Counted from the first letter of the stretch, positions 5,953 to 40,896 are shown. The stretch is DNA of 64,000 bases from Halorutilales archaeon Cl-col2-1 (GCA_041891055.1 CP169074.1:1760001-1824000), one strand, 5' to 3'. Notes: generated by a model from the sequence alone, not told the origin. Translations and numbers: made by a program.

Positions 5953-6347
5953 ACTCGCGTCTATTCGCGCACCCCGTATCTGAGTACCGGTTCGCTCTGG
6001 CACAATCCGAAATCTTTTTACATAAGTGCTACTAAGAATGTAGTAGCACCGGTTGATTACCCCCCTTCCCCCACCATACATCAAACCGGTGTCACCCCTT
6101 ACCCCCCACCCCACCAGTACAGTACTCGTTTTCTATTTCCCCCTTATACGTAGTACAGGAGAATACCTGACTCCTTCAGGGTCAGGATGAATCCGTTCTC
6201 GAAGTTACCACTTCGAGGGCTGTTGAGCTTCGCTCAACAACGTTAAACTACTCACCAAATCATTCTAATAGACACAAACGGATATTCAACGAAGCTCATA
6301 TTCAAGTAAGATTTAATAATATACATATACAATAACTACGTGTAGTC

Positions 6348-7646
6348 ATGGAGACCAACCTAACGATAACAGCCGAGATACTAAATCACTCTCAAGTAGA
6401 GAGTGATTTAGACAGGCATGGTTGGTCTGCCTCGAAACTATGGAATATTGCCAGATACTACACTAGAGAAGTCTGGGAAAAGACAGGAGAGATCCCTGAG
6501 GAAGATACGTTGAAGACCGAGTTGAAAGAACACGAAAGATACGAGGACTTACACAGTCAGTCCAGTCAGAAAGTTCTAGAAGAGCTTTCTGAGGCGTACC
6601 AGTCTTGGTACGGCTCCGACGACGACAGGGATAATCCTCCTGGCTACCGCAAACGTTGGTACTACGACGGCTCAGGTAATCTAGTCCACGAAGAACATCC
6701 TAGGAGTACGGTCACATGGAAGAATCGTGGCATAAGACACGATTCTGACAATAACAGAGTACGTCTCTCTAAAGGCAAGAATCACAAACAAGTAGAAGAA
6801 CGTAGCGACTTCATCCTCATAGAGTACGACTTACACAGACCATACAACGAGATAGACGGAAGTATACAGCAGGTTCGTGCTGTATACGACGAAAAGGAAG
6901 AAAAGTGGGAGTTACACCTAGTCGTACAGAAAGAGATAGAAGTAGAAGACTCAGGAGAAGAGACTGTAGGGATCGATCTAGGTATCAGTAACTTCGCTGC
7001 GCTCTCGTTCGAGAACGGCGATACCGTTCTTTACCCCGGCAACGAACTCAGCCAGAACAACTACTACTTCGAGAAAGAGAAGGCTAAACTCGATAAGTCG
7101 GACGGTAGAGAACGTACTCGTCTAGATCATCTACAGTCAGAGAGACGTAGACACTTCCTCCATTCGTTGTCTAAGCATATCGTAGAGGAGTGTAAGAAGA
7201 GAGACGTTGGAAAGATCGCCGTAGGCGATCTTGAGGACATTCGTCAGGACGACGATGGAGAAGCCAGAAACTGGAGAGACTCAGGTAATTTAAACCTGCA
7301 CAAGTGGGCGTTCGACCGCTTTACCGGGATGCTAGAGTACAAGGCGAGGCTGAGTGGTATTGAGCTAGAGAGGATAGACGAAGAGAACACGTCGAAGACG
7401 TGTTGTGTCTGTGGTAAGCTCGATGGTGACCAGAGAGTCGAACGTGGTCTGTACGTCTGTGATGACTGTGATACGGTAGCTAACTCAGACGTTAACGGAG
7501 CTGAAAACATAAGACAGAAGTCTGAAGGTAACTCCGAGTCTTCTTGCTTTGATCAAGAAGATAGGAGTATCGGTTGTTTGGCACAACCTGGAGTCTACCT
7601 GTATGATCGGTCTTGCGGATTCGAACCGCAAGAAGCCGTTGGGTAG
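6348..7646 (+). CDS. tnpB: RNA-guided endonuclease TnpB
   Basis: SKLWN helix, GIDLG (RuvC-I), TSKTCCVCG...CDDC zinc finger, NSDVNGAENI (RuvC-III). Confidence 0.93.
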   Translation: METNLTITAEILNHSQVESDLDRHGWSASKLWNIARYYTREVWEKTGEIPEEDTLKTELKEHERYEDLHSQSSQKVLEELSEAYQSWYGSDDDRDNPPGYRKRWYYDGSGNLVHEEHPRSTVTWKNRGIRHDSDNNRVRLSKGKNHKQVEERSDFILIEYDLHRPYNEIDGSIQQVRAVYDEKEEKWELHLVVQKEIEVEDSGEETVGIDLGISNFAALSFENGDTVLYPGNELSQNNYYFEKEKAKLDKSDGRERTRLDHLQSERRRHFLHSLSKHIVEECKKRDVGKIAVGDLEDIRQDDDGEARNWRDSGNLNLHKWAFDRFTGMLEYKARLSGIELERIDEENTSKTCCVCGKLDGDQRVERGLYVCDDCDTVANSDVNGAENIRQKSEGNSESSCFDQEDRSIGCLAQPGVYLYDRSCGFEPQEAVG

Positions 7647-7684
7647 GCTTCAAACCTTAATATCCCAACTGGGATTCACCCCGT

Positions 7685-7777
7685 TCGTGAATCTTTGATT
7701 CACGAGCATGCTGAGGGAACCTCAGCATACGTCTCCAGATCTTTGATCTGGATGGCTAACGAATTCGAAGAATTCGT
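7685..7777. repeat. Cassette of four perfect 8-9 bp triloop palindromes inside the IS right end
   Basis: TCGTGAATC-ttt-GATTCACGA; ATGCTGAGG-gaa-CCTCAGCAT; TCCAGATC-ttt-GATCTGGA; ACGAATTC-gaa-GAATTCGT. Confidence 0.9.
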
Positions 7778-7801
7778 ACCGCCTTCAGGCGGGTGAGGAT
7801 G

Positions 7802-9232
7802 TCAAGATATAAGAGATATGACTCTAACTCCGTCCTTAGATAGTAGACTGCTTATCTTAGAAGATGCTTTTACTACTCTGTCCGCGGACTCTTCAGCGAA
7901 TACGTCAGGATCACATGACTCTATCAGAGATGGTAGTTTTTCGACGCCGGTTACTCTCTGACCTCCCGTGAGGTTCGAGACTCCGTCGTTGAGTATCACA
8001 ACGAGGATGTCCTCATCTCTCTCAGACGCCTCCAAGAGACCCTGTATACCCGAGTGAATGAATGCGGTGTCTCCGACGAAAGCTACGGCATCCTCGGGAT
8101 GTCCGGACGCGAGGCTTATCGCAGATCCGAGCGCCGAAGCACCGTCGGCGAACTCGAACGGAGGACGTCCCGTGAGTGCTACCGAGCCTATGTCGACCGC
8201 GACGAAGACGTCCAGAAGATCATCGACGACACCCTTGTAGATCTCGTAGAAAGGATTCGACTCAGGTAGGGGACGTCCGCTTTTCTCTATATCTGGGCTG
8301 ACGGGTGAGGGGTCGGTGAAAGCAGTCTCGATACCTCTCTCCACGGCTTCCTCGGTCAGTCTTCCGTACCGCGGCAGGTGTCCAGTCTCCTTACCCACCA
8401 CGTTTTGGGTGTCGAGGAAATTTTCTATCAGAGGATCACCGTCTTCCACTACGAGGACTCTGTCGTGTCTCCCGACGAAACGTTCCGCCTCGGACGGTAC
8501 TGGATACGAGTATCCGAGCGAGAGATGTGAGACGTCGTCGGGAACCACCTCCGAGGCGTCGCCACACGACAGTACGCCGAGGTCAGTACCCCCGTCTCTC
8601 AGACTGTGTAGATCCGAACTGTCGACGTACCTCCGTATCTCGGGACGTATCTCTTCCTCGAAGACCTTTCTGCGTCTGACTACGGGACCTTTCCACGCCC
8701 TCTGTCTGTCGAACTCGCCCGTTTCTTCTATTCTGTCGAATCTCAGTCTCTCGACTGCAGTCTCAGATTCGAGAAGACGCGAGGTCACGCGTACTATACA
8801 CGGCACACCTACGTCTTCTGAGAGTCTCAGACCCTCCTCGACTGACTCGAGTAATCCGTCTACTCCTGAGGGAGTCAGAACCGGAACCCGCGCCTTGAAA
8901 CCTAACGAGCGTGAGTCTCCCTCGTCCTGTGACTTGACAGCTCCGGGATCGTCGCCCGCGATGACTAAGACACCGCCGCCCGTCCCGAAGGTGGCTGAGC
9001 TCGCGAGGGGGTCGAGTGCGACGTTGACACCCACGTGTTTGGCTATGAGACAGCCCCTCTCGCCAGCGAACGACCTTCCTATGGCTTTCTCTACCCCCAC
9101 CATCTCGTTTGGAACCACGTCGGAATCGGTCTCCTCGACCAGATCCGTGACAGGATATCCCACGACTCCCGCCGTGTATACGTCGTTTTTCTTGAGACAA
9201 CGCGCGACCGCTTCAGCGCCGCTTATCCTCAT
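7802..9232 (-). CDS. TPP-dependent enzyme related to indolepyruvate:ferredoxin oxidoreductase alpha subunit, lacking Fe-S motifs (candidate 2-oxoacid decarboxylase)
   Basis: SGAEAVAR, GYP, NEMVG, KHVGVNVALD, GDDPG..SQ.EGDSR (IorA-like) and TPP motif GDTAFIHSG...VVILND; no ferredoxin domain. Confidence 0.8.
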   Translation of the reverse strand: MRISGAEAVARCLKKNDVYTAGVVGYPVTDLVEETDSDVVPNEMVGVEKAIGRSFAGERGCLIAKHVGVNVALDPLASSATFGTGGGVLVIAGDDPGAVKSQDEGDSRSLGFKARVPVLTPSGVDGLLESVEEGLRLSEDVGVPCIVRVTSRLLESETAVERLRFDRIEETGEFDRQRAWKGPVVRRRKVFEEEIRPEIRRYVDSSDLHSLRDGGTDLGVLSCGDASEVVPDDVSHLSLGYSYPVPSEAERFVGRHDRVLVVEDGDPLIENFLDTQNVVGKETGHLPRYGRLTEEAVERGIETAFTDPSPVSPDIEKSGRPLPESNPFYEIYKGVVDDLLDVFVAVDIGSVALTGRPPFEFADGASALGSAISLASGHPEDAVAFVGDTAFIHSGIQGLLEASERDEDILVVILNDGVSNLTGGQRVTGVEKLPSLIESCDPDVFAEESADRVVKASSKISSLLSKDGVRVISLIS

Positions 9233-10191
9233 ATGTACGGACTGTCCTTCGTGAGTTCGTCTATCACTGCTTCGACTACTTCCTCAGTCGATGACTCTCC
9301 TCCTAAGTCGGGCGTCGGCGCGCGTCTGACCCCCTCATAGGTTGCTTCTTCGAGCCTCCTACTCCTCTTCTCGAAGCCGAGGTAATCGAGCATCATAGAT
9401 GCGCTCAGAAGACAGCCCGCGGGATTGGCTACTCCTTCGCCGGCTATGTCGGGGGCACTCCCGTGGACGGGCTCGAACATCCCGAAGTCGTCGCCTATGT
9501 TCGCGCTCGGTGCTACTCCTAACCCGTCTCCGAGTCCGGCTGTGAGGTCGCTGAGTATGTCTCCGTACAGATTCGGCGTGAGTAAGACGTCGAACTCCTC
9601 ACCATCTGCGAGGTCGTGGGCTACGGAGTCGACGAGCCTTTCGTCGTACTCGACGTACGAATCCTCGATGACTTCTCTGCTCACGTCTCTGAAGAGACGG
9701 TCCGAACCCACGACGTTGGCTTTGTGGACTACGGTGACTTCTGACTCCGCCTCTTCGACGGCTTTTACCGCCGTCTTCCGTGTCGCCTCCGTTGTCACTG
9801 AACGGACTGTCTCACACGCGCCTTCCTTTGATATCTCCTCCCCTGAGTAAAGACCCTCAGTGTTTTCCCTGACTACTGTCCCAGTCCGCGAGGGGCGTAC
9901 GTTGGCATAGAGTCCTAGCTCGTTTCTCAGACGGAGGACGGTGCTCTCGTACTTCGGGTCGTCGGGACTCTCGACGGCTCCGAGAAGAAGGGCATCACAG
10001 TCACGTATACGTTCGAGCGTCTCCTCGGTCACGCCTGTGTCGACCTCCTCTGACTCCCAGACAGACCTCCCGACATCGAGGCTCACGGTCTCGATACCCA
10101 CGTCGAGACATCTCAGAGACTCGACCGTAGCAGGCACGACCTCTCTGCCTACTCCGTCTCCCTCAGCCACTCCTAAAGTGATATCAGCCAT
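9229..10191 (-). CDS. aksF: Isocitrate/isopropylmalate family beta-decarboxylating dehydrogenase (AksF/homoisocitrate dehydrogenase-like)
   Basis: EGDGVGREV, LYANVRP, RENTEGLY, NLYGDILSDL, FEPVHGSAPDIAG. The aks assignment comes from gene context. Confidence 0.75.
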   Translation of the reverse strand: MADITLGVAEGDGVGREVVPATVESLRCLDVGIETVSLDVGRSVWESEEVDTGVTEETLERIRDCDALLLGAVESPDDPKYESTVLRLRNELGLYANVRPSRTGTVVRENTEGLYSGEEISKEGACETVRSVTTEATRKTAVKAVEEAESEVTVVHKANVVGSDRLFRDVSREVIEDSYVEYDERLVDSVAHDLADGEEFDVLLTPNLYGDILSDLTAGLGDGLGVAPSANIGDDFGMFEPVHGSAPDIAGEGVANPAGCLLSASMMLDYLGFEKRSRRLEEATYEGVRRAPTPDLGGESSTEEVVEAVIDELTKDSPYI

Positions 10192-10669
10192 TCTTTCTCC
10201 TCCAGCTTAGCAAGCCACCCGCTTCGAGAACCTCACGAAGCCTCTCGGGAAGCTCCTCACACTCGTGCCTCGTCTTCCCGGGCTCCGACTCCACTACCAC
10301 GGTGCCTTCTGACAGATCCAGTGAGACGCGGTCACCGTCGTCGGTGTCTTCGGCGACAGATGCTGTTGCTATCGGGAGACCAACGTTGATCGCGTTTCGG
10401 TAGAATATACGTGCGAACGACTCGGCGACTACCCCTCTGATCCCGGCTGCCTTTATCGCCCTCGGTGCCTGTTCACGTGACGATCCGTACCCGAAGTTCT
10501 CACCCGCTACTATAACGACTCCCTCGCTGTCGTCCGCAAACCGGGGATCTACGCCCTCCATTACGTGGTCAGCCCACACGTCCTCGTCACGCCGGAGGTA
10601 CTTTCCGGGTATTATCTCGTCGGTGCTGATGTCGTCTCCGAATGTCCTCGCTTCTCCTTTGACCCTCAT
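10184..10669 (-). CDS. aksE: Homoaconitase/isopropylmalate isomerase small subunit (AksE-like)
   Basis: Start re-called at MRVKGEA (ATGA overlap with the upstream stop); DISTDEIIPGKYLRR, NFGYGSSREQA, SFARIFYRNAINVGL. Confidence 0.8.
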   Translation of the reverse strand: MRVKGEARTFGDDISTDEIIPGKYLRRDEDVWADHVMEGVDPRFADDSEGVVIVAGENFGYGSSREQAPRAIKAAGIRGVVAESFARIFYRNAINVGLPIATASVAEDTDDGDRVSLDLSEGTVVVESEPGKTRHECEELPERLREVLEAGGLLSWRRKNG

Positions 10670-11913
10670 ACTACCTCCGCTGGGTTGGTTATCTCCCCTT
10701 CTACTGCACTCGCAGCGACGGTCTCGGGCGACCCGAGATACACGTCTCCCGATCCCATTCTCCCGTCGAAGTTCCTGTTGCCCGACGAGATACAGACCTC
10801 CCCGTCTCCGACGACTCCCTGGTGGTATCCCATACACGGACCACATCCGGGGTTGAGTATAGTCGCGCCGGCTTCCATAAGCACGTTCGAGATGCCCTCC
10901 TCGTTGGCTCTCATCAGGGCTTCCTTCGTGGCGGGAACTAATATCAGACGCGTCTCGGGTGCTACCTCGCTGCCTTCGAGGATTTCAGCCGCGGCGGCTA
11001 GGTCGGAGAAGCCCCCGTTCGTACAAGTTCCTATATGTGCCTGATCCACAGCCGTACCTTCGACTTCGTCGACTGGAACGGCGTCCTCGGGAGCACCCGG
11101 ACGTGCTACGAGGGGTGACTCGGGAGCCTGTATACGTATCTCCTCGTCCCAAGACCCCGGGTCGGAGTAGACGGGGTTCGCGTCCTCCTTTCCGGTGTAC
11201 TCGAAGGTAGTCTCATCGGGTGGTATCACCGCCGACTTCGCGTCCATTTCGACACCCATGTTACACAGGGTTATCCTCTCCTCTACGCTGAGATCCTCTA
11301 TACAGTCGCCGTGGTACTCTATCACGCTGTAGTTAGCACCGCTCGCCCCCAGCTCCGAGACGATCTTGAGAGTCAGATCCTTGGGTGTAATACGGCTCCG
11401 GCTCGGGTCGAATTCCTCAATCTCTACCTTAATTGTCTCTGGGACACGGAACCACAGCTTTCCCGAGATGAGTGCCTCGGCGATATCAGTGCTTCCCACA
11501 CCCGTCGAGAATGCTCCGAGTGCACCGAAGCTACACGTGTGTGAGTCGCCCCCGACTACAATATCTCCGGGGTTTATGTAGTCTTTCTCGGGAAGTACCC
11601 TGTGACATATCCCCTCACCCTCGTGTCTGTCGATGCCATTCTCGGTGGTCCAGTCCCTTATCTCAGACTGCTGTTCGGCGACGTCCTCGTCGGGTGCCGG
11701 GAAGTAGTGGTCGAAGGGAACAACCACCTTGTCGGAGTCCCACGGCTCTTCATCCATCTCCTTCATAGCCTCGACGGCTAGGACGCTCGAACCGTCGTGA
11801 GCCATCACGAGGTCGAGATCAGCCTCAACAACGTCTCCTGCTCGCGCTTCCTCACCCGACGCGTCCGAGAGCACCTTCTCCGCCATCGTCGTAGGCTCTG
11901 TCGCCCGCGTCAT
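10666..11913 (-). CDS. aksD: Homoaconitase/isopropylmalate isomerase large subunit (AksD-like)
   Basis: MAHD, DH, GICH, DSHT, GTCTNG, PGCGPCMG ([4Fe-4S] ligands), NRNFDGRMG. Confidence 0.8.
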   Translation of the reverse strand: MTRATEPTTMAEKVLSDASGEEARAGDVVEADLDLVMAHDGSSVLAVEAMKEMDEEPWDSDKVVVPFDHYFPAPDEDVAEQQSEIRDWTTENGIDRHEGEGICHRVLPEKDYINPGDIVVGGDSHTCSFGALGAFSTGVGSTDIAEALISGKLWFRVPETIKVEIEEFDPSRSRITPKDLTLKIVSELGASGANYSVIEYHGDCIEDLSVEERITLCNMGVEMDAKSAVIPPDETTFEYTGKEDANPVYSDPGSWDEEIRIQAPESPLVARPGAPEDAVPVDEVEGTAVDQAHIGTCTNGGFSDLAAAAEILEGSEVAPETRLILVPATKEALMRANEEGISNVLMEAGATILNPGCGPCMGYHQGVVGDGEVCISSGNRNFDGRMGSGDVYLGSPETVAASAVEGEITNPAEVV

Positions 11914-13052
11914 CTTCCTCTCACCTCCTCGACCAGCTCGGATATGCTGACTGTGTCTCTTCCCGACTTGAGACTCTCGACTACCTCCTCAATCTCGTCC
12001 TCGATCTCTATACCCTCTCTCTCGGCGATGAACTCTACTGCCTTTCTACCTGAATGTTTCCCGATCTCGAACTCCCTCTCTCGTCCGACTTTCTCGGGAG
12101 GGTATACCTCGTAAGTCCCGGGATCGTTGGCTATCCCCTCGACGTGGACACCGCTCTCGTATCTGAAGGCGTTTTTCCCGACTACCGGCTTCGTAGGGCT
12201 GACCTCTATTCCCGATCTCTCTTCGACGACTTCCGAGAGACGGCTCAGTTTCTCAGTCTCTACCACCTCGAACGAGTACTGTGTCGAGAGGACGACTGCG
12301 ACCTCTTCTAGGGGAGTGTTGCCCGCGTTCTCACCTATGCCGTTCACAGTCGTGTGTAGCTGTACTGCGCCCTCCTCGGCTGCGGCAACTGTGTTCGCGA
12401 CTGAAAGACCCAGGTCGTCGTGGCAGTGTACCGAGACGGGTACCTCGACCCAGTCTCTGACCTTAGTCACCATCGTTCGTGTCGTCGGTGGGGTTAGAGC
12501 ACCCACAGTGTCGGCTATACCTACCATGTCGGCTCCTCTCTCCTCGGCACCCGTGTAGAGACGTCTGAGGAAGCCGGGGTCGGATCGTGTAGAGTCCTCG
12601 ATGGCGAAACGCACCTCTATCCCATGATCAGACGCGTACTCGACCGTCCTGAACGCCTTCTCAGCCGCCTCTTGCCTCGTTATACCGTACTTCTGACTCA
12701 GATGGCGGTCGCTCCCGGCTATGAATACACCTACTGCGTCGGCTCCCGTCTCGATTACGGAGTCTATGTCGTCTTCCATACACCGCGCGAGACACGAGAT
12801 CTTAGCGTCTGTTCCGAGACTCACGACCTCCTCGACGGCTCTTCTCTCGTCGTCGCTTACAGCCGGAAATCCCGCCTCTATGTATCCTACTCCTGCTTCG
12901 TCAAGCAGACGCGCTATCTCCTTCTTGTCCTCGACCGAGAACGAGACTCCGGGTGTCTGTTCTCCGTCTCTTAACGTGACATCGTATATATGAAGATCAT
13001 CAGTTAGTTGGGGTCTGTCGACGAAGTTCGAGAAGCTGTTGGCTTGGGTCAT
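11910..13052 (-). CDS. aksA: Homocitrate synthase-like DRE-TIM acyltransferase (AksA-like), no regulatory domain
   Basis: DVTLRDGEQTPG, HCHDDLG, GIGENAGN, ESGVH, GKHSG; about 380 aa from the ATG at 13052. Confidence 0.8.
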   Translation of the reverse strand: MTQANSFSNFVDRPQLTDDLHIYDVTLRDGEQTPGVSFSVEDKKEIARLLDEAGVGYIEAGFPAVSDDERRAVEEVVSLGTDAKISCLARCMEDDIDSVIETGADAVGVFIAGSDRHLSQKYGITRQEAAEKAFRTVEYASDHGIEVRFAIEDSTRSDPGFLRRLYTGAEERGADMVGIADTVGALTPPTTRTMVTKVRDWVEVPVSVHCHDDLGLSVANTVAAAEEGAVQLHTTVNGIGENAGNTPLEEVAVVLSTQYSFEVVETEKLSRLSEVVEERSGIEVSPTKPVVGKNAFRYESGVHVEGIANDPGTYEVYPPEKVGREREFEIGKHSGRKAVEFIAEREGIEIEDEIEEVVESLKSGRDTVSISELVEEVRGR

Positions 13053-13071
13053 TGTGGTTGTCGTGTTTACT

Positions 13072-13752
13072 TTACTCTCCGAATACCTCTGTCGTGAGGC
13101 TCTTTCTGACGGATTTGGCGGCTTCCTCGGGTGTGACTCTCTCCTCTGAGACACCGATATCAGGTATCTTTCCGACGACGTCAATGCCTGTCATCATCTC
13201 AATTTCGTCGGGGTTTGTCCTCTCGGCTGTGTCGGGATTCTCAGGATATCTGTTGATAACTATTCCCGAGACATCGAGGCTTCTTCTCTCGACTGCCTCG
13301 ACGGTGAGCGCTGTGTGGTTGAGGGTTCCGAGGCTCGGGCGCGTGACAATGAGAACGGGGACTCCGAGGTCTTCTATCAGGTCTATTACCTCCTTACCGT
13401 CGTCGAGAGGCACTCTCACACCTCCGATACCCTCTACGACGGTGAAGCCGTCCTCGGATAACCTCGATACGACGTGTTCGAGTACACTGTCGTAGCCCAG
13501 GTCACACCCCTCTATCTCCGCCGCGACTCTCGGAGCCAAGGGCTCTTCGAGTACCGACGCGCAGACTTCGTCTACGGGGTCGCCTGACGCCGCACTAAGA
13601 AACTCGGCGTCGTCACTCCCGCCTGACTCGACGGGCTTTACTGCGTTCACGTCGAATCCCTTGTCTTTCAGGTATCTTACTATTCCTCCCGCGACTACTG
13701 TCTTACCCACTCCTGTGTCGGTTCCGGCTACGAATATCCCGTTCGTGTTCAT
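13072..13752 (-). CDS. bioD: Dethiobiotin synthase
   Basis: FVAGTDTGVGKT, KPVESG, VEGIGG, LGTLNHT. Confidence 0.95.
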   Translation of the reverse strand: MNTNGIFVAGTDTGVGKTVVAGGIVRYLKDKGFDVNAVKPVESGGSDDAEFLSAASGDPVDEVCASVLEEPLAPRVAAEIEGCDLGYDSVLEHVVSRLSEDGFTVVEGIGGVRVPLDDGKEVIDLIEDLGVPVLIVTRPSLGTLNHTALTVEAVERRSLDVSGIVINRYPENPDTAERTNPDEIEMMTGIDVVGKIPDIGVSEERVTPEEAAKSVRKSLTTEVFGE

Positions 13753-14960
13753 ATCACTCCCACCTCTTTGCCTGCCTCCTCGAACGCGTCCACGACTTTT
13801 CGGATTTCGTCATCTGTATGGGTCGCCATCGCGCTCACACGTATCCTACTCGTACCTTCGGGGACTGTCGGAGGACGTACTGCGGGAGCGAAGATGCCTC
13901 TCTCCTCGAGCTTATCCCCTAGACTTACTGCGTCTTCGGCGTCGCCTACGAGAACCGGGATTATCTGTGACTCACGGCTGAGTATCTCATATCCGAGGTC
14001 GCTCAGACTCTCTCTCAAGAACTCGACGTTCGACCATAGATCTTCTCTCAGATTCTCTCCCTCACCACTCCTTACGAGATTTACTGCCTCGCGTGAGACC
14101 TCGGCGTCTATCGGGCTCAGACCCGTGCTGAAGACGAACGACCTCGCCTCGTTCACGAGGAGGTCGATAAGCTCTGAGGATCCAGCGACAAAGCCGCCCT
14201 GGCTTCCGAGGGCTTTGCTCATCGTACCCATCTGAATATCTATGTCGTCCACAAGCCCCTCGCGTCTGACTACTCCAGAACCTTCCTCGCCTACTACACC
14301 TGTGGCATGCGCCTCGTCGACCATTACGAAGCCACCGTCGTCGCGCGCTATCTCCGATATTTCCTTGAGGGGAGCTATGTCGCCGTCCATCGAGAATACC
14401 GAGTCGGTCACAATCAGCTTACGTCTTCCGTCGTGTTTCTTCCATTTTTCACGGAGGTCGTCGGGATCGCAATGGTCGTACACAACGGTTTTGGCGTCTG
14501 AGAGGCGGCATCCGTCTATTATGCTCGCGTGGTTGAGTTCGTCGCTGAATATAACGTCCCTCTCGTCTGCAGATCCCTGATCTCCAGGCTCGGAAATCAA
14601 AGATTTCCGAACGTCGGTGACTGCGGTGATCGTTCCGACGTTCGCGGCATATCCCGACGAAAAAACCAGAGCGTCTTGTGTTCTCTTGTACTCGGCAATC
14701 TCGTCCTCGAGACGCCGGTGTGGCTCCAGATTGCCCGATAGTAGACGCGACGCTCCTGCCCCAGTGCCGTACTTATCGCTCGCTCTGCACGCCGCCTCCT
14801 TCAGACGTCTATGGCTTCCGAGCCCGAGGTACGAGTTGGAGGAGAGAACCAAGGTTCTGTCATCCTCGCCGTCGACCGTCGCTGTCTTTCCAAAGCCGCC
14901 GAGTTCCCTCATCGACCTGTAGAGTCCCCGGCGTTTCCTGACCTCAACCTCCTCGAACAT
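13749..14960 (-). CDS. bioF: 8-amino-7-oxononanoate synthase
   Basis: SSNSYLGL, GASRLLSG, DELNHASIIDG, FSMDGD, DEAHA, GTMSKALG (PLP lysine). Confidence 0.95.
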   Translation of the reverse strand: MFEEVEVRKRRGLYRSMRELGGFGKTATVDGEDDRTLVLSSNSYLGLGSHRRLKEAACRASDKYGTGAGASRLLSGNLEPHRRLEDEIAEYKRTQDALVFSSGYAANVGTITAVTDVRKSLISEPGDQGSADERDVIFSDELNHASIIDGCRLSDAKTVVYDHCDPDDLREKWKKHDGRRKLIVTDSVFSMDGDIAPLKEISEIARDDGGFVMVDEAHATGVVGEEGSGVVRREGLVDDIDIQMGTMSKALGSQGGFVAGSSELIDLLVNEARSFVFSTGLSPIDAEVSREAVNLVRSGEGENLREDLWSNVEFLRESLSDLGYEILSRESQIIPVLVGDAEDAVSLGDKLEERGIFAPAVRPPTVPEGTSRIRVSAMATHTDDEIRKVVDAFEEAGKEVGVI

Positions 14961-14963
14961 CTA

Positions 14964-15962
14964 CTAGAATCCGGGCATTATCTCGCTCGGATCGAAGAGG
15001 CCGTAGAGTCCGTTTTGGTTGAGGAAGACCCCTTTCTTGAGGTATCCGAGCGCGGGACCGTTGACGTTCGCTGCCATGCTCGTGTTGTCGTCTAGCTTGA
15101 ATGTGTTGGTGCCCTCGTCGCCCTCGAAGGTCGTACCCGTCACACGTACGGTCGTCGTCGTGGGTTTCTCGTCCTGTGTGACGTCGAGTATTCCTCCTAC
15201 CTTGACGTCGGCGGAGTCACATATTCCCGCCTTTTCGAGGAGTACCTCGTCGGCGTGTTCCATGTCCTCGAACTCAAGACGTCCGTCGTGTTCCTCTATT
15301 ATCTCCTCTATCTCGTCGTCGGACATCTCGGAGACCTTTTCGAGGTCGTACTCCGGGAGATGTGCGATGTCCTCTCTCACGGTTCCCTTGTTCTCCTCGT
15401 ATCCGCTCGCTATGCCTACTCCCCACCATATCTCTATCTCGTCGACCTCTACGAAGCTCTGTGAAGCGATTGCGGCGGCTCCCGTGAGGAAGCCGGGCGT
15501 CGCACCTGCGCCACAGATGAAGGTAATTCCCGATGCCTCTATCTTCGACTCCATATCTTCGAGCATGCCGATCACACGCGACCTCTTGAGGACGTCAATC
15601 ATGACTCCCGAGTAGCCCGCGTCTGCGAATCTGTCGACGGTATCGGGTATGAACGAATGGGGGATGTTGGGAAGAGCCATCAGGACGGCGTCTATACGGT
15701 CGCTGACCTCGATGACCTCCTGTATCGAGTCGTTCGCGGGAGTCCCACCGGGAGCCTTCGCGACTGTTCCTCCGTCGGCTTCGACCGCATCGACGATGTC
15801 GTCGACTTCGAGACCGTCGAAGTCTATTGCCACACCTTCTTTGTCACACACCGCGACCGGATTGAGGTCGTCCTTGTACTCCGAGACTTCGAGTGTTCGT
15901 TTGCCTATTCCACCTGTACCAAGTACGGCTATGTTCTTTGTATCTGCGTCTGTTTCAGACAT
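14964..15962 (-). CDS. bioU: BioU NAD(P)H-dependent suicide enzyme (replaces BioA)
   Basis: Rossmann VLGTGGIG, ALPNIP, DVLKRS (conserved Lys), GATPGFLT, REDIAHL, MEHAD, TSMAANVNGP; lies between bioW and bioF with no bioA present. Confidence 0.85.
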   Translation of the reverse strand: MSETDADTKNIAVLGTGGIGKRTLEVSEYKDDLNPVAVCDKEGVAIDFDGLEVDDIVDAVEADGGTVAKAPGGTPANDSIQEVIEVSDRIDAVLMALPNIPHSFIPDTVDRFADAGYSGVMIDVLKRSRVIGMLEDMESKIEASGITFICGAGATPGFLTGAAAIASQSFVEVDEIEIWWGVGIASGYEENKGTVREDIAHLPEYDLEKVSEMSDDEIEEIIEEHDGRLEFEDMEHADEVLLEKAGICDSADVKVGGILDVTQDEKPTTTTVRVTGTTFEGDEGTNTFKLDDNTSMAANVNGPALGYLKKGVFLNQNGLYGLFDPSEIMPGF

Positions 15963-16725
15963 ATTTATCGAGTTCTTTGGGTTTTATACTGTAGAAATCC
16001 GACACTCCGTCAACCAGAAACGGCGTAGTCTCAAGACTGTCTATATAGCTGTTCAGATCCGTGTCGGGAGAGACGAAGTAGACGCGTCCTCCCGAAGAGC
16101 CGTCAGGCTTCATCCTCGGAAAACGGAAGTAAGTCGCGTCCACAGCTACGTATCCGGGCTTATAGCCGGGGTTGTCCGACCAGCAGATTTCCCCGACTGT
16201 TCCCTCGACCCACTGTGTCTTCGTAGACAGAACGACTGCGTCCTTGACACGTGTTCCGCCGAGACCCGCGTCGTGTATACACTCTTCGAGTCCCTCCTCG
16301 CCTTCATCTGTCGTGCCGACGTAAGAGGTTCTCACTCCTCGACTCTCGTCGGGTTCGAGCCTCTCGCCAGTCTCGGAGTCGACGACTGCAGCACCTCTCA
16401 TCGCCGTCTCGGAGCGGAGTATCTCGAACCCTCTTTCGGTAGCCTCCTTAGAGATGTGTTCCTGAAGTATACTCCTCGCTGTCGCGTGACTCTCTTTGAG
16501 GCTCGATGTCTCGACCGTGACGACATCGACTGTGTCGCTTCTCTCGGGCTTTTGTTCGATCTCTTCTATTGAGATCTCTACGGAGTCGGGCGTCTCTCTC
16601 GGGTGGTTCATCGCTCTCGCCGTCATAGACGAGACTGTGTCGTCTATCTCGTCGTCGACGACTATGTCCTCCGCGCCCGAGACGTGTTCGTCGTTCAGAG
16701 AAGCCCTCATCCGTACGCTGTACAT
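15955..16725 (-). CDS. bioW: 6-carboxyhexanoate--CoA ligase (pimeloyl-CoA synthetase)
   Basis: MYSVRMRAS..HVSGAE, RAMNHPR, MRGA, RLEPDESRGVR, EICWSDNPGYKPGYVA, GGRVYF. Confidence 0.92.
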   Translation of the reverse strand: MYSVRMRASLNDEHVSGAEDIVVDDEIDDTVSSMTARAMNHPRETPDSVEISIEEIEQKPERSDTVDVVTVETSSLKESHATARSILQEHISKEATERGFEILRSETAMRGAAVVDSETGERLEPDESRGVRTSYVGTTDEGEEGLEECIHDAGLGGTRVKDAVVLSTKTQWVEGTVGEICWSDNPGYKPGYVAVDATYFRFPRMKPDGSSGGRVYFVSPDTDLNSYIDSLETTPFLVDGVSDFYSIKPKELDKYV

Positions 16726-16728
16726 ACT

Positions 16729-17727
16729 CTATTCGAGGTCTTCGACGCGTCTTCCCGCGTTCTGGATCATCTCTATGTCTTCCTGAGCGTTCTGTCCCTC
16801 AGTCGTGAGGTAGTCGCCTATTAGGAGACCGTTGGCTCCCGATTCGAGTATCTCGGGCTGTCTGTCCTTGAGGTTCTCCTCGCGCCCTCCGGTGATCCGT
16901 ATCACCTTCTCGGGCATCATGAACCGGTAGATGGAGACCGACCGGAGTATCTCGTCGACGGTGATCTTCGAGTACGACTCGAACGGCGTTCCGGGTACGG
17001 GATTGAGTATGTTGACAGGTATCGAGTCGACATCGAGCCTCCTAAGCTCGGAAGCCGCCTCTATCCTGTGCTCCATCTCCTCACCCATTCCGAATATCAC
17101 TCCGACACACGTCTTGAGACCGACCTCCTGTGCGATCTGAATAGTCCTGACCCTGTCGTCGTAGTCGTGTGTGGATATGACCTCGTCGAAGTACGACGGC
17201 GCGGTCTCTATGTTGTGGTTGTAATGCTGAAGACCCGCCTCTGCGAGATCCTCCGCCTCCTCGCGCGTGAGAACTCCGAGGGAGCCGTCGGGTTCTACGT
17301 CTGTCTCGTCCCTGATGAGACGTATCGACTCTAAGACCTTCTCGAACTCGTCGGGGCGTTTCTGCTTGTCGATTCCGCGCTCGGCGACCACGATACCAAA
17401 CCTGTTCGAGCCGTCTTCCTCTGCCCTCTTCGCGGCTTCGAGTATCTCCTCGGGGTCGAGGTAGTCGTACTCGTCGACGCCCGTGTCGTAATGGTTCGAC
17501 TGGGCACAGAAGCCACAGTCCTCGGCACATCCGCCGCTCTTGGCGTTGATGATAGAGCACGTATCGACGCCGTCGCCCATATTCGACTCACGTATCTCGT
17601 CGGCGGCGTCAACGAGGGGTTCGAGGGGAGCGTCGGCGAGACGGAGAGCCTCTTCCTCCGAGACTCCCTCACCCCTCAGAGCCTTCGTCTTCAGATGACC
17701 TATCTCCTCAGCTAACTCGTTAACCAT
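16729..17727 (-). CDS. bioB: Biotin synthase
   Basis: CSIINAKSGGCAEDCGFCAQS radical-SAM motif, YNHNIET, GDYLTT. Confidence 0.97.
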   Translation of the reverse strand: MVNELAEEIGHLKTKALRGEGVSEEEALRLADAPLEPLVDAADEIRESNMGDGVDTCSIINAKSGGCAEDCGFCAQSNHYDTGVDEYDYLDPEEILEAAKRAEEDGSNRFGIVVAERGIDKQKRPDEFEKVLESIRLIRDETDVEPDGSLGVLTREEAEDLAEAGLQHYNHNIETAPSYFDEVISTHDYDDRVRTIQIAQEVGLKTCVGVIFGMGEEMEHRIEAASELRRLDVDSIPVNILNPVPGTPFESYSKITVDEILRSVSIYRFMMPEKVIRITGGREENLKDRQPEILESGANGLLIGDYLTTEGQNAQEDIEMIQNAGRRVEDLE

Positions 17728-17749
17728 GCAGACGAGCTTGGTTGACGAG
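17716..17749. promoter_or_regulatory. Putative BirA-type biotin operator overlapping the bioB start
   Basis: CTCGTTAAC-N16-GTTGACGAG palindrome. A TATA-like TATTATA on the minus strand at about 17754-17760 suggests a leaderless transcript. Confidence 0.65.
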
Positions 17750-17997
17750 ATAGTATAATACTTATGGTAGTTGATTATAGTCTCACCCTCTCAGCCGGCT
17801 GTCTGTCTGTGACTTACCTTTTCGTAAGGTTAATTTTACTTCGGCAACTTCTAACAGTTGACACACGCTCCCGCAGCCAGCCCATCCTTCTGATCCGAGT
17901 GTGTGTCACGACACGCCCATGTCACCACGTCCACATCCAGTCTATTTTTGACCGAAACACGAAAGGAGTTAGACACGGAATCCGTACCCAGAGCCGG

Positions 17998-19584
17998 ATG
18001 GACGACTCGTCTGACATAGACACCGGGAGTCTGAGACCGAGAGAGTTAGCCAAGGTCGTTGTTCGTGTGTGGCGTGAGAGAGGACACAGAGCCGCTGTCA
18101 AGACACACGACTCCGACGTATTCGTCGTCACGAGAAGCCGATCCGAGTCATACCCAGACTCCGGGTACGATCGTCTTATCTTGGTCAAGACGTCGGGTAG
18201 CTTCGGTCAAGACGACGCCGAGTACCTACTCAGGACTGCGTCGCGAGCAAATGCGTCTAAGGCTTACGTCGTCCACACCGACACTGTCGAATTACTCGTC
18301 GACACCGACGACATACAGTTCGTTCCCGCGCGGCGTCTGTTGGACGAAGTCGACCCCGACGACGTGACAGATCTCAGCGCGGATGACTCCATACTTATCG
18401 ACAGACGCCGACTCCTCCTCGCAGCAGCCACAGTAGCGGGTCTCGGGATTGGAGTTACTCTCGTACTCAACCTCTTAAACTCCCCGAATGAGGTAAATCC
18501 TGGCTCGACGTCTTCCGGGACAGTCCCATCGGATGATCCGTCGGCGTGGTCACAGTTCCAGCACGACGCCGCGAACACGGGATACATCTCCTACGGTACC
18601 GAGGACAGTCTTACGGATACGTGGAGTTACCCGACCCGGGGCTCCCTCGTCTCGTCGCCCGCAGTCGCCGACGGTAGAGTCTTCTTCGGAAGTAAAGACG
18701 GAAGCCTCTACGCCGTAGACTCCGAGACGTCTGAGACGGCTTGGAGTTACAGTACTCGGGCTGGGATTGCCTCGTCGCCCGCAGCCGTCGGCGATCGAGT
18801 CTATGTCGGGAGCAATGACGGAAGTCTCTACGCAGTCGACGCCGAGTCGGGCGACCGAATCTGGGAACACTCCACGGACGGAGGCGTCGTCTCGTCACCC
18901 GCAGTCGTCGGAGGAACTGTCTTCTTCGGAAGCAGGGACGCGAGTCTCTACGCAGTCGACGCCGAGTCAGGCGACCGTCTCTGGAGCTACGAGACGGGGT
19001 TCGACGTCGTCTCGTCACCCGCAGTCGTCGGAGGAACTGTCTTCTTCGGAAGTAGGGACGCGAGTCTCTATGCAGTCGACGCCGAGTCGGGCGACCGTCT
19101 CTGGAGATACGAGACCGGAGAGCCCGTCAACTCGTCTCCGGCAGCTGTCGACGGCACTGTCTACTTCGGGGGTCTCGACTCGAACCTCTACGCAGTCGAC
19201 GCTGATACGGGCGAGGAGACCTGGAGAAAATCGACAGATGGTCAGATCAGATCCTCGCCGGCTGTCGATGTCGAGGATGACAGGATATACGTCTCTTCTC
19301 TCGACCGACGTCTCTACTGTCTGACCTTGGACGGTGACGAGGTCTGGACCTACGACGCCCGAAGCCAGATGAGACCTTCTCCAGCCGTCACACGTAACAC
19401 CGTCTATGTCGGCGACTCCGACGGTGTGCTACACGCCGTCGACGCCGAGTCGGGGGATCGAGTTACGACACATTCACTTGGCGAAAGGATAATTTCATCT
19501 CCCGCTGTTGTTGAGGGCTCGCTCTATGTCGGGGACGACTCCGGCGAGCTACATTCTCTCGGACTCGTGGAGACTGACGGCTGA
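17998..19584 (+). CDS. PQQ/BamB-type beta-propeller repeat protein with N-terminal degenerate Mrr-like domain and one TM helix
   Basis: About eight SSPAVxxGxVFFGSxDxxLYAVDAxSGxxxW repeats; WSQFQHDAANTG; start re-called at MDDSSD. Confidence 0.8.
   Translation: MDDSSDIDTGSLRPRELAKVVVRVWRERGHRAAVKTHDSDVFVVTRSRSESYPDSGYDRLILVKTSGSFGQDDAEYLLRTASRANASKAYVVHTDTVELLVDTDDIQFVPARRLLDEVDPDDVTDLSADDSILIDRRRLLLAAATVAGLGIGVTLVLNLLNSPNEVNPGSTSSGTVPSDDPSAWSQFQHDAANTGYISYGTEDSLTDTWSYPTRGSLVSSPAVADGRVFFGSKDGSLYAVDSETSETAWSYSTRAGIASSPAAVGDRVYVGSNDGSLYAVDAESGDRIWEHSTDGGVVSSPAVVGGTVFFGSRDASLYAVDAESGDRLWSYETGFDVVSSPAVVGGTVFFGSRDASLYAVDAESGDRLWRYETGEPVNSSPAAVDGTVYFGGLDSNLYAVDADTGEETWRKSTDGQIRSSPAVDVEDDRIYVSSLDRRLYCLTLDGDEVWTYDARSQMRPSPAVTRNTVYVGDSDGVLHAVDAESGDRVTTHSLGERIISSPAVVEGSLYVGDDSGELHSLGLVETDG
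18884..19116 (+). repeat. Near-identical 120-bp tandem repeat within the propeller gene
   Basis: GTCGTCTCGTCACCCGCAGTCGTCGGAGGAACTGTCTTCTTCGGAAG... occurs twice with a 120-bp period. Confidence 0.85.
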
Positions 19585-31452: not shown

Positions 31453-32646
31453 ATGAGTCTGAGTCTCCCTGTCGACCCCGGAAAACTCGAAGAAGCAGCC
31501 GAGGAGTTCGGCACACCCGTCTATGTCACCGACTCCGAGACGATACGCGATAGATACTCCGAGATGAGTGACGCCTTCCCCGACGCGAGGATACAGTACG
31601 CCGCGAAGGCAAATACCAACCCTCGTATACTCGAAGTTCTGAGGGACGAGGGCGCGGCGGTCGATGCCGTATCGCTCGGCGAGGTCGTAGCAGCCGAGAA
31701 AGCAGGGTTTGAGCCCGACGAAATAATGTATACGGGGGTCAACCCGCCCGAAGAAGAGTTACGGCGTGTCATCGAGAAGGACGTCAGGCTAAACGCCGAC
31801 TCGGTAAGCGGAATAGAGAGGATCGCCGAGATAGACCCCGGTAGGGAGATAGGTATACGTGTCAACCCTTCGGTGGGCGCAGGACACCACGAGAAGGTCA
31901 TCACGGGGGGCGAGGGATCGAAGTTCGGAGTACCCGAGGAGGCGATAGTCGAGGCGTACGAACGCGCCGACGAAGTCGGTCTCGAAGCCGTTGGCGTACA
32001 TATGCATATAGGGAGCGGAGTCACCCAGCGCGAGCCCTTCGAGAAGGCGGCGGAGAAGATGGGCGAGATAGTCGGAAGGATAGAGGACGCGGGATATAAG
32101 ATGGAGTACATAGACGTCGGCGGCGGAATAGGTGTGCCGTACAGACCCGGCGACGACAGACCCGACCTGAGCGGCATAGCCGACGGGATACGTGAAGGAC
32201 TCGGAACCGAGTCACGTGACACCGAACTGATAGTCGAGCCGGGACGTTTCTTAGTCGCCGAGTCGACAGTCCTTCTTACGCGGGTCAACACGGTAAAGGA
32301 TGGCTTCGTGGGGGTCGATGCGGGCTTCAACACTCTACTCCGTCCCGCGATGTACGACGCCTACCACCATATCACTAACCTGTCACGCGACGCGCCCGAG
32401 AGAAAGGTCGATGTCGTAGGTCCGATCTGTGAGACGGGAGACGTCTTAGGGGAGGACAGACGGATCGCCGATCCGAGAGAGGGAGACGTCTTAGCGATCC
32501 ACACCGCGGGAGCCTACGGCTTCTCTATGTCTTCACGTTACAACTCACGACGTCTCCCAGCCGAAGTGATGGTCTCGAACGGCGGTCTTGAGCTTATACG
32601 TCAACGCGAGACATTCGACGACGTATTCGGGAAGGTCGTCGAGTGA
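31453..32646 (+). CDS. lysA: Diaminopimelate decarboxylase
   Basis: YAAKAN, SKFG, HMHIGS, EPGR, GPICETGD, GAYG, YNSR. Confidence 0.95.
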   Translation: MSLSLPVDPGKLEEAAEEFGTPVYVTDSETIRDRYSEMSDAFPDARIQYAAKANTNPRILEVLRDEGAAVDAVSLGEVVAAEKAGFEPDEIMYTGVNPPEEELRRVIEKDVRLNADSVSGIERIAEIDPGREIGIRVNPSVGAGHHEKVITGGEGSKFGVPEEAIVEAYERADEVGLEAVGVHMHIGSGVTQREPFEKAAEKMGEIVGRIEDAGYKMEYIDVGGGIGVPYRPGDDRPDLSGIADGIREGLGTESRDTELIVEPGRFLVAESTVLLTRVNTVKDGFVGVDAGFNTLLRPAMYDAYHHITNLSRDAPERKVDVVGPICETGDVLGEDRRIADPREGDVLAIHTAGAYGFSMSSRYNSRRLPAEVMVSNGGLELIRQRETFDDVFGKVVE

Positions 32647-39831: not shown

Positions 39832-40338
39832 ATGCCAGAGGAATCTCTGACGGAAGAATGGCAGAAGTCGTTGGAGGAGCGTTCTGCACGTGAGAGGGTC
39901 TATGACGTAGCTCTACAGCTACACGAGCCTACTAAGGTGTCAGACGTAGCCGAACGGGCAGAAGTCTCGAAAGAGACAGCCAGAAACTACCTTACTTGGT
40001 TCACAGAGATAGGAATACTAACTCAGGACAGCCGAAGTCCAGACACATTCAGCCGTAACGACTCTTATTTCGAGTGGAAACGCATCAACGAGCTTCGGAG
40101 CCTCCCGAAAGACGAACTCACTTCTCGTCTAGAAGAGCTCACTCAGAAAGAGACTGAATACAGAAACAAATACGAGGAAGAGAGTCCTAGCGAAGTCGAA
40201 GCACTCGACTATGCGGATTACGACGAAGTCGAGGAAGTCTGGCTCGAACTCGACGAGTGGGAGACCGTCAGACGTAGAATCAGAGAGTTAGAGAAGGCGA
40301 GAAACAGAAGCGAACCACGGGACGGAGTCAGTGCGTAG
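39832..40338 (+). CDS. ArsR-like HTH protein (haloarchaeal mobilome gene pair, first gene)
   Basis: RERVYDVALQL..VSDVAERAEVSKETARNYL..YFEWKRINEL. Confidence 0.7.
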   Translation: MPEESLTEEWQKSLEERSARERVYDVALQLHEPTKVSDVAERAEVSKETARNYLTWFTEIGILTQDSRSPDTFSRNDSYFEWKRINELRSLPKDELTSRLEELTQKETEYRNKYEEESPSEVEALDYADYDEVEEVWLELDEWETVRRRIRELEKARNRSEPRDGVSA

Positions 40339-40750
40339 GAAAGAAAAGATGTCGAAGACAGTCAACGAGTCACTCCTTCGAAGTACTGCGAACAGACTTG
40401 AGAAGGTAGACAGATTCGAGAAAGTAGTACTCTTTCCGGTCGATTACCCCGAGTCTGTGATTGTCGAGACTGACCTCGTGTACTACCCAGAGGATGTCGA
40501 CCGTGCTTTTCTGGACATCCGGACGTACCTAAACGGAGACTTCCACATCTCGTATATTGAGGAGCGGGAGTTAGACAGATGGAGATGTCGTTGGGATCGA
40601 CATGAGAATAACCATAACTCCAGAGACCACTTCCATCCTCCGCCCGACGCTCCTACTCAGGGGGAAGACAGAGAATACCCCGACGACTTCTTCGACGTTT
40701 TAGGAATAGTCCTCGAATACGTCGAGTCTAGGCTGGGCGAGGTATGGTAG
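40331..40750 (+). CDS. Hypothetical protein with His-rich motif (second gene of pair; possible TA toxin)
   Basis: NGDFHISY..CRWDRHENNHNSRDHFHPPPDA. Confidence 0.65.
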   Translation: MRRKEKMSKTVNESLLRSTANRLEKVDRFEKVVLFPVDYPESVIVETDLVYYPEDVDRAFLDIRTYLNGDFHISYIEERELDRWRCRWDRHENNHNSRDHFHPPPDAPTQGEDREYPDDFFDVLGIVLEYVESRLGEVW

Positions 40751-40802
40751 ACTCGAGTATGTGGGCTAGCTCAAGGACACACTCTTAGATATTAGCAGTT
40801 GC

Positions 40803-40896
40803 TAAGCCCTCGCCCTCAAGGGGTGTTCAAAAATTTGAGTCCTCAAGTCATAGAGTTTGGGACGAAGGAAGTGTGCAGGTGTGTGGCGTAGTTCAC
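40803..40896 (+). mobile_element. Degenerate IS200/IS605 right-end remnant
   Basis: AAGCCCTCGCCCTCAAGGGGTG...GTAGTTCAC resembles haloarchaeal IS605 ends; its TCA forms the stop of the convergent kinase. Confidence 0.45.

Follow-up and report, generated by a model that had tools for sequence, protein, structure and literature searches.

A haloarchaeal biotin operon carrying methanogen-type Aks genes and a cluster-free IorA-like protein: a candidate route to pimelate through 2-oxosuberate

The window analysed here is a stretch of 64,000 nucleotides from the Halorutilales archaeon Cl-col2-1 (GCA_041891055.1, CP169074.1:1760001-1824000; G000:C1:1760001-1824000 in our genome collection). It contains a ten-gene operon in which a biotin cluster, bioB-bioW-bioU-bioF-bioD, runs into aksA-aksD-aksE-aksF and a gene for a short IorA-like thiamine pyrophosphate (TPP) protein. 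On the evidence of trees and pairwise matches, the elongation genes are orthologues of the Aks enzymes of methanogen coenzyme-B synthesis and not host leucine genes, while the TPP protein is probably a non-oxidative decarboxylase. Removal of C1 from the C8 compound 2-oxosuberate leaves the C7 skeleton that BioW needs, which points to biotin as the use, and we think it fairly probable that the aks and TPP genes together supply pimelate through 2-oxosuberate. The operon would then be a compact candidate route from a tricarboxylic acid cycle intermediate to pimelate that dispenses with acyl carrier protein. A first-pass annotation of this DNA had described ten co-directional genes in the same order, joined by overlaps or gaps of under 20 bp, and proposed the same carbon route. 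Its observation is confirmed and its interpretation partly supported: all ten genes were found on the minus strand (window 17727-7802) and assigned to families, with junctions of -8 to +19 nt. Its boundaries of 7802-17749 are right at 7802, whereas the operon ends at 17727. The genes, in reading order, are as follows.

16729-17727, minus strand: bioB, biotin synthase, 332 aa; TIGR00433 382.6 bits (cut-off 225), Radical_SAM and BATS domains.
15955-16725, minus strand: bioW, pimelate (6-carboxyhexanoate)-CoA ligase, 256 aa; NF002360 240.6 bits (cut-off 226), PF03744 E 3.5e-70.
14964-15962, minus strand: bioU-like gene, presumed BioA replacement, 332 aa; NF047886 342 bits, E 2.7e-102, profile positions 1-321 of 323.
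13749-14960, minus strand: bioF, 8-amino-7-oxononanoate synthase, 403 aa; TIGR00858 437.7 bits (cut-off 426.45).
13072-13752, minus strand: bioD, dethiobiotin synthase, 226 aa; TIGR00347 138.6 bits (cut-off 83.3).
11910-13052, minus strand: aksA-type homocitrate synthase, 380 aa; PF00682 and PF22617, short form without the LeuA regulatory domain.
10666-11913, minus strand: aksD/hacA-type homoaconitase large subunit, 415 aa; TIGR01343 (hacA_fam) 485 bits (cut-off 385.7).
10184-10669, minus strand: aksE/hacB-type homoaconitase small subunit, 161 aa; best solved relative 2pkp, E 2.2e-40.
9229-10191, minus strand: aksF-type homoisocitrate dehydrogenase, 320 aa; PF00180, best solved relatives 3asj and 1x0l, E 2e-65.
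7802-9232, minus strand: short IorA-like TPP enzyme, 476 aa, candidate 2-oxosuberate decarboxylase; PF02775, TIGR03336 202.9 bits.

From bioB to the TPP gene the successive junctions are +3, -8, +3, -4, +19, -4, -4, -8 and -4 nt. The aks and TPP genes overlap each other (-4 to -8 nt), and aksA starts 19 nt past the bioD stop. The longest open reading frames of aksA and aksE were found to be over-extended, with likely starts at ATG 13052 and ATG 10669, respectively. The host genome (2.06 Mb in 4 contigs, 99.5% complete) contains an archaeal small-subunit rRNA, and the window DNA is also present in hypersaline and salt-lake metagenomes; a protein from the same genus carries the database label 'Halobacteria archaeon'. 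When compared with the same-genus genome G001, the ratio of nonsynonymous to synonymous substitution rates (dN/dS) is 0.06-0.39 over nine operon genes and 0.10-0.33 for the aks genes, and bioF is intact in G001 at 89% amino-acid identity. All ten frames are intact in both genomes (G000 and G001), and the operon genes are under purifying selection. The guanine-cytosine (GC) content of the operon, 0.557-0.585, is close to the mean of 0.554 for contig C1, and a recent foreign island was rejected on these grounds.

The host possesses a biotin carboxylase and therefore needs biotin. The BioW product falls below the cut-off of a second model (TIGR01204, 170.7 bits against 193.55); the BioW model was positive in the Bacillus subtilis and Methanocaldococcus jannaschii controls. 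As in the BioW route of B. subtilis and the Methanococcales, the window genes would use free pimelate through BioW and BioF. A genome-wide search for bioA gave no match over the cut-off, the best (232 bits against 405) coming from a gene in a LysW cluster. In line with this, the BioU-like gene sits between bioW and bioF and matches the model for the Synechocystis enzyme over its full length; it also occurs in the bio clusters of Candidatus Methanoperedens nitroreducens and of the haloarchaeal genome G173. The first-pass annotation had excluded bioC/bioH, bioI and bioZ. Genome-wide, the best match to the BioC model is 73.9 bits (cut-off 184.95), no P450 was found, and just one 24-bit ketoacyl synthase match was obtained; the bioH and bioZ models themselves were not searched. 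A passage of PMC6138646 describes Bacillus pimelate as derived from fatty-acid synthesis. The window operon differs in having a 2-oxoacid module, and searches of its genome turned up neither a P450 nor a BioC nor a genuine ketoacyl synthase. The same source reports bioW in 17 of 18 Methanococcales and in 0 of 31 Halobacteria in KEGG, and calls the archaeal origin of the pimeloyl moiety an open question.

The identity of the elongation genes is carried by several comparisons. In the database, the aksA product is closest, at 50-54% identity, to proteins of Methanocella and Methanothrix that bear the name methanogen homocitrate synthase, and its best solved relative is the homocitrate synthase 6ktq (E 6e-85). 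In a 35-row aksA tree, which holds no named M. jannaschii AksA, NifV or lysine-pathway sequences, the window protein and its same-genus orthologue lie inside a 14-row short-form clade with a Shimodaira-Hasegawa-like approximate likelihood ratio (SH-aLRT) support of 99. Members of this clade are 365-396 aa long, as opposed to 411-526 aa in two long-form LeuA/CimA clades that include the host leuA, and they include copies adjoining the TPP gene in other archaea. The aksD product matches an aks-cluster copy in another archaeal locus (L018) at E 9e-123, compared with 1.6e-58 for host LeuC, and the aksE product lies inside a 9-row clade (SH-aLRT 95). For the aksF product, pairwise matches (no tree) favour Thermus homoisocitrate dehydrogenases (E 2e-65) over isopropylmalate dehydrogenase (1e-46); in our own reading of the alignment, Arg85 of the Thermus enzyme is one residue out of register with an Arg in the window protein. 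The Aks-type identities proposed in the first-pass annotation are supported. All four genes belong to the same families as methanogen AksA, AksD, AksE (HacAB) and AksF, with the window aksA and aksE in the same clades. The window differs from the methanogen system in the fusion to a biotin operon, in equivalog scores below the cut-offs, and in a host genome in which no mcrA and no DUF7714 or TCKD-like companion gene was found. The host is accordingly a non-methanogen, as had been proposed.

A leucine role for the aks genes was rejected. The host genome holds only two HMGL-family genes, and a separate leuA-ilvB-ilvN-ilvC-leuC-leuD cluster is located at C1:141636-148678, with leuB at about 260 kb; an NADP isocitrate dehydrogenase is also present. 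The operon genes are therefore not the sole elongation set of the genome, and their matches to the host Leu paralogues are much weaker than those to aks-cluster copies.

An improbable alternative is that the elongation genes make 2-oxoadipate, either for lysine by the aminoadipate/LysW pathway or for another product, and that they came to lie behind the bio genes through a chance rearrangement, the region holding many insertion sequences (IS). The following gene had been taken in the first-pass annotation to make an aminoadipate role less likely.

31453-32646: lysA; TIGR01048 448 bits (cut-off 297.9).

Indeed, dapA, dapB and dapF are all over their cut-offs in the host genome, so the diaminopimelate (DAP) route to lysine is present together with lysA. 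However, the minus strand carries, 3-8 kb beyond the right end of the window (G000:C1:1827298-1832411), a complete lysW-lysX-lysY/argC-lysZ/argB-lysJ/argD-lysK cluster, with scores over cut-off for LysX (327 bits, cut-off 275.6), LysK (402, cut-off 363) and LysW (62, cut-off 53.2), and lysA by itself is insufficient to set aside an aminoadipate role. For the synthase and the dehydrogenase, moreover, the best solved relatives are lysine-pathway enzymes of Sulfolobus and Thermus, and IS elements flank or interrupt the region. Against this stand the DAP genes and the setting of the LysW cluster, beside a carbamate kinase and with argH near, which fits arginine synthesis. The aksA and aksE genes fall within methanogen coenzyme-B clades, and the start/stop overlaps continue into the gene for the TPP enzyme, relatives of which are encoded beside aks genes in archaea with a requirement for 2-oxosuberate. 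The aminoadipate route also has no use for a 2-oxoacid decarboxylase.

The final gene of the operon encodes a protein that differs markedly from IorA. Its score against TIGR03336, 202.9 bits, is far under the cut-off of 650.9, PF02775 being the other family match. IorA proteins are about 590-650 aa long, whereas the window protein has 476 aa and lacks a ferredoxin domain and an IorB partner in the operon (a genome-wide IorB search with PF01558 was not run). Four Cys columns, presumed to bind the TPP-proximal [4Fe-4S] cluster, are retained together by 56 of 60 aligned relatives; the window protein and the orthologue have P, N, S and a gap instead. The protein stops before the fourth Cys and the ferredoxin domain, and no Fer4 Pfam match was found in it. 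The fold and the TPP-binding motifs of the IorA/oxoacid:ferredoxin oxidoreductase (OFOR) alpha subunit are shared, with the TPP-activating N42-E43 pair and the GD387...N416 motif both kept. An ESM Atlas model, with a predicted template-modelling score (pTM) of 0.89, overlays IorA-like proteins over residues 1-476 (TM 0.90-0.95). A sequence search of solved structures gave no true match, the lone hit (E 0.0026, to a biotin carboxylase fusion) being attributed to chance. The dN/dS of 0.21 against G001 indicates that the gene is not decaying. In-frame-stop flags on some TPP matches were considered as a sign of recoding and this was rejected, as the flagged TGA in G000 is the gene's own stop.

The absence of both the cluster ligands and a ferredoxin domain makes OFOR-type oxidative decarboxylation unlikely, and an aldehyde is expected as product. 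As judged from its sequence, the window protein misses every IorA-defining feature tested and should not be filed as IorA. It is conceivable, though unlikely, that the same carbon route is followed with the TPP enzyme acting oxidatively through an external acceptor or partner. This would convert 2-oxosuberate to pimeloyl-CoA or pimelate directly, without an aldehyde dehydrogenase, and would leave BioW to act on the free acid or in salvage. Such a scheme suits the OFOR alpha fold with its intact TPP motifs and an operon that has no aldehyde dehydrogenase, and the labelling literature on methanogens reportedly speaks of oxidative decarboxylation to pimelate. It is at odds with the replacement of all four [4Fe-4S] ligands, the missing C-terminal Cys region, the missing ferredoxin domain and the operon's want of an IorB-like gene, while the presence of BioW in the operon argues for a free acid product rather than a CoA ester.

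Among 61 relatives searched, the TPP orthologue (96% identity) was found just in a same-genus genome; the next-best relative is 39% identical among 5.8 billion clustered proteins and 41% identical in an exhaustive search of 1.84 billion representatives. A scan of the genome collection with the TPP protein alone returned no relative. In a 60-row tree the window protein lies in a 32-row clade (SH-aLRT 97) of 375-596-aa forms, almost all from methanogen or anaerobic methanotrophic (ANME) lineages, separate from a 27-row canonical IorA clade of 525-600-aa rows, some with ferredoxin domains. About 25 of 149 IorA-like representatives that we checked are also without the four cluster Cys; these cluster-less proteins are 496-554 aa long (P0184, P0187, P0190-P0192, P0196-P0199, P0202 and about 15 more), and the three organism-named clusters are from Marininema (Marininema halotolerans), Amycolatopsis and Mechercharimyces. 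Twenty of them form one clade in an 85-row tree. Since the window protein lies outside this bacterial clade, its cluster loss looks independent, with the caveat of long branches. Matching metagenome loci with the cluster-less bacterial alignment yielded 31 loci at 25-41% identity, with no aks or bio gene alongside any of the 31; the close cluster-less proteins were not among these loci.

These bacterial proteins bear on a further alternative, in which the TPP enzyme either works as a carboligase or takes another 2-oxoacid as substrate, and the aks module feeds a metabolite sharing just its regulation with the biotin genes. Cluster-less relatives with unassigned roles do occur in aerobic bacteria, and the substrates proposed for the short clade are predictions. 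With the window protein outside the cluster-less bacterial clade, and with BioW and BioF needing exactly the C7 diacid that decarboxylation of a C8 2-oxoacid would give, we give this alternative very little credence.

A link between the TPP family and Aks genes exists independently of the window. The 15 closest archaeal loci were inspected, and the TPP gene was found to adjoin aksA and aksD in five of them (L013, L014, L016, L018 and L020), an observation in support of the first-pass interpretation. In three of the five (L014, L016, L018) aksE, aksF and a DUF7714 gene follow; L013 and L020 show just aksA and aksD, the L020 sequence stopping about 1 kb beyond aksD. Of these five genomes, four carry mcrA, whereas BioW occurs in none. 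In 8 of the 15 loci (L010, L011, L012, L015, L017, L023, L024 and L025), from Methanoperedens, Methanosarcinaceae and others, the short TPP gene comes directly after a gene for a protein of about 300 aa. These genes belong to a single family, and the two members scanned (L011:9120-10004 and L023:8993-9970) show TiaS TCKD/FLD-like domains. In mcrA-bearing archaea this TiaS-TCKD-like gene may encode an additional, ATP-using step of the pathway.

We then surveyed a phylum sample of 251 genomes, counting 483 bits or more as a strong short-form match. Strong matches occur in 75 genomes. Apart from G000 and G001 these are 73 genomes from five families; 66 of the 73 have mcrA, and the remaining 7 are metagenome-assembled genomes of 59-95% completeness. 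In the window's own order, no match in any of the 35 other genomes reaches E 1e-40. Most simply, the TPP family would act on what the Aks cycle makes, and this haloarchaeon would use that compound for something other than coenzyme B.

The proposed route to pimelate would begin with three rounds of elongation by the AksA-type synthase, the HacAB-type isomerase and the AksF-type dehydrogenase, taking 2-oxoglutarate (C5) to 2-oxosuberate (C8). The chemistry is presumed to be that of methanogens, for which iterative Aks elongation from 2-oxoglutarate to 2-oxosuberate forms part of the coenzyme-B pathway as outlined in a passage of PMC3087415. The short TPP enzyme would then strip C1 non-oxidatively from 2-oxosuberate to give 7-oxoheptanoate (pimelate semialdehyde), which an unlinked aldehyde dehydrogenase would oxidise to free pimelate. 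The latter is the weakest step. The best candidate is a succinate-semialdehyde-dehydrogenase-like gene at G000:C1:1481675-1483036 (NF006915 603 bits, cut-off 730). BioW would convert pimelate to pimeloyl-CoA, and BioF, BioU (in place of BioA), BioD and BioB, as assigned by family, would complete biotin. In this scheme the front half of methanogen coenzyme-B synthesis and a Methanoperedens-like bioB-W-U-F-D cluster have been packed into one haloarchaeal operon, with biotin as the sole remaining customer.

The same logic has been used in an engineered pathway. According to PMC4666358, NifV/AksDEF and a TPP decarboxylase gave a chain-shortened aldehyde, with a diacid side product upon oxidation. 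As described there, a homocitrate synthase and AksD/E/F act on 2-oxoglutarate and a TPP decarboxylase yields an omega-oxo acid; that system is synthetic, stops at the C7 compound 2-oxopimelate, uses the unrelated Lactococcus KdcA and has 6-aminocaproate as its target. The genetically defined pimelate routes in the papers we found are BioC/BioH, BioI/BioW, BioZ and BioE, all of which depend on fatty-acid synthesis or cleavage.

Labelling work from the White laboratory is said to have proposed 2-oxosuberate as the precursor of both coenzyme B and biotin in methanogens, and database annotation of Aks proteins presumably names it as the precursor of both as well. Our literature search, which did not extend to the White-laboratory papers, found no paper linking 2-oxosuberate or ketosuberate with pimelate and biotin. 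The 2-oxosuberate-to-biotin route itself is probably not new in principle, and the novelty proposed in the first-pass annotation has to be narrowed. What appears to be new is the packaging in a non-methanogen, the specific enzyme nominated past 2-oxosuberate and the cluster-free state of that enzyme.

Several observations weigh against a pimelate-supplying module. The LysW cluster described above is one of them. The chain length reached by the module is not readable from sequence, and the operon has no aldehyde dehydrogenase, the sole strong one in the genome lying about 290 kb away. With an aldehyde expected from a TPP protein devoid of cluster Cys, the earlier proposal that the operon encodes a complete path to biotin did not hold. 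Although matched over its full length, the BioU-like protein scores 342 bits where the curated NF047886 cut-off is 600. Three of the Aks assignments fall short of their methanogen-specific models: the aksD product scores 430.7 bits against NF040615 HacA_Meth (cut-off 550), the aksE product 162.1 and 158.2 bits against HacB2_Meth and HacB_Meth (cut-off 230), and the aksF product 267.7 bits against NF040626 AksF2_Meth (cut-off 540). The substrate specificity of homoaconitases is set by a small-subunit loop (YLRT), in which Arg replaces the hydrophobic loop of isopropylmalate isomerase. A KYLRT loop is found in all seven other members of the aksE clade and in 2pkp (the M. jannaschii homoaconitase small subunit), whereas other methanogen paralogues have YLIL, YLTI, YLVI or YLVY and host LeuD has RFLKE. 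The window aksE reads KYLR-R, not YLRT, the Arg being kept and the Thr replaced by Arg. Window branches are long in all three trees (1.3-2.0 changes per column). The short-form TPP family is not universal either, as 68 of 134 mcrA-bearing genomes sampled have no match at E 1e-40 or better and 66 of 134 have the strong form. In methanogens, relatives of the TPP enzyme retain one Fe-S cluster and may thus catalyse a different reaction.

The distribution of the operon adds to these points. BioW is rare, occurring in 4 of 401 genomes of the order and in 2 of 401 of the phylum sample, and the closest BioW outside the genus is from Ca. Methanoperedens nitroreducens (38% identity). When the bio-aks linkage was sought in other genomes, it was found only in the window's genus. 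Two other bioW-bearing haloarchaea, G173 and G230, have no AksA orthologue; G173 carries bioB-U-F-D-W and G230 carries bioW alone. Within the genus, the bio and aks halves of G001 are on two contigs, and an IS-like insertion is located in the 19-nt bioD-aksA spacer (L094:1-56 and L095:10281-10315, corresponding to window 13053-13071). It has 13-base inverted ends, CGGTACTTCCCAA and TTGGGAAGTACCG, and a duplicated ACTTT. The same bioD-aksA break is seen in contigs of runs X2 and X3, and the spacer insertion explains the breaks in both the G001 assembly and the X2/X3 contigs. The bioD-aksA adjacency is ancestral and the two halves were separated in that strain.

Another alternative is a leftover or imported coenzyme-B fragment, whose aks and TPP genes are decaying or make 7-oxoheptanoate or a derivative for a use unrelated to biotin. 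We regard this as very improbable. In its favour, aksA, aksE and the TPP protein all have their closest relatives in mcrA-bearing archaea, the window sequences sit on long branches, and the G001 insertion splits the bio and aks halves. Conversely, the host has neither mcrA nor the companion genes that accompany the TPP gene in methanogens, and selection is indicated by the dN/dS values of the aks genes (0.10-0.33) and of the TPP gene (0.21). The ten frames are intact in two genomes, and the aks and TPP genes are joined by overlaps of -4 to -8 nt with a gap to bioD of just 19 nt.

The supply of pimelate through 2-oxosuberate is further illuminated by Ca. Methanoperedens nitroreducens, which has an identical bioB-bioW-bioU-bioF-bioD order (L154) as well as aksA (L155) and the short TPP enzyme (L011). 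Here, the three parts are on different contigs, and the TPP enzyme keeps its four Cys and is preceded by a TiaS-TCKD-like gene. It would appear that Methanoperedens, with both needs, keeps the parts separate, whereas the haloarchaeon, with the biotin need alone, joins them in one operon. More tentatively, Methanosarcinales, ANME-2 and Methanoperedens-type archaea might use their short IorA-like TPP proteins to take 2-oxosuberate out of the Aks cycle in coenzyme-B synthesis. The haloarchaeal form would then be an Fe-S-free derivative, taken over along with the Aks cycle to make pimelate by an oxygen-tolerant route independent of fatty acids; we consider this possible but on balance doubtful. 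If true, a single operon would name both the archaeal source of the biotin carbon chain and, by homology, a missing coenzyme-B gene, and the list of coenzyme-B candidates would extend to the TiaS-TCKD-like and DUF7714 neighbours. The enzyme family nominated here bears on the decarboxylation step of coenzyme-B synthesis in methanogens and methane-oxidising archaea. In the Cys-free variant an oxidoreductase scaffold has apparently been turned into a plain decarboxylase, which could help to make C7 diacids or omega-oxo acids in aerobic hosts.

The region around the operon contains further features. A mobile element gene lies just downstream of the operon and outside the pathway.

6348-7646, plus strand: IS605-family OrfB/TnpB gene; PF01385 and PF07282.

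The GC content is 0.465 in the bin holding this gene (6001-8000), compared with about 0.56-0.58 across the operon. Contigs of runs X2 and X3 join position 6137 to 7806 with 9 other letters between and lack the element (6138-7805), which is therefore strain-specific. A second TnpB gene with a DUF2080 partner is found just right of the window (L190:1424-2849). It is followed by a stretch (L190:3298-8830, equivalent to G000:C1:1827298-1832830) containing a LysM-like regulator and LysW-cluster genes, including a [LysW]-lysine hydrolase, beside the carbamate kinase.

In other genomes, the DUF7714 (PF24830) genes that follow aksF are located at L018:16266-17120, L014:10616-11455 and L016:16035-16871, all three in mcrA-bearing genomes. 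BioF/Kbl-family genes occur 550-670 nt downstream of IorA-like genes in a Bacteroidota locus (L049:12146-13417) and a Thermodesulfobacteriota locus (L070:11070-12302), matching the window BioF at E 1e-75 and 9e-79, respectively; the L070 IorA-like copy, the one of the two included in the tree, falls in the canonical IorA clade. In G173, a DASS-family sodium-coupled anion symporter (L097:6317-7729) is located about 2.3 kb from the bioB-U-F-D-W cluster, and one may speculate that it imports a dicarboxylate such as pimelate. Divergent from bioB in the window is a gene for a 606-aa PQQ/beta-propeller repeat protein (17764-19584, plus strand), the two start codons being 36 nt apart. Further along the window, the GC content drops to 0.43-0.45 at 40001-44000, compared with about 0.56 elsewhere.

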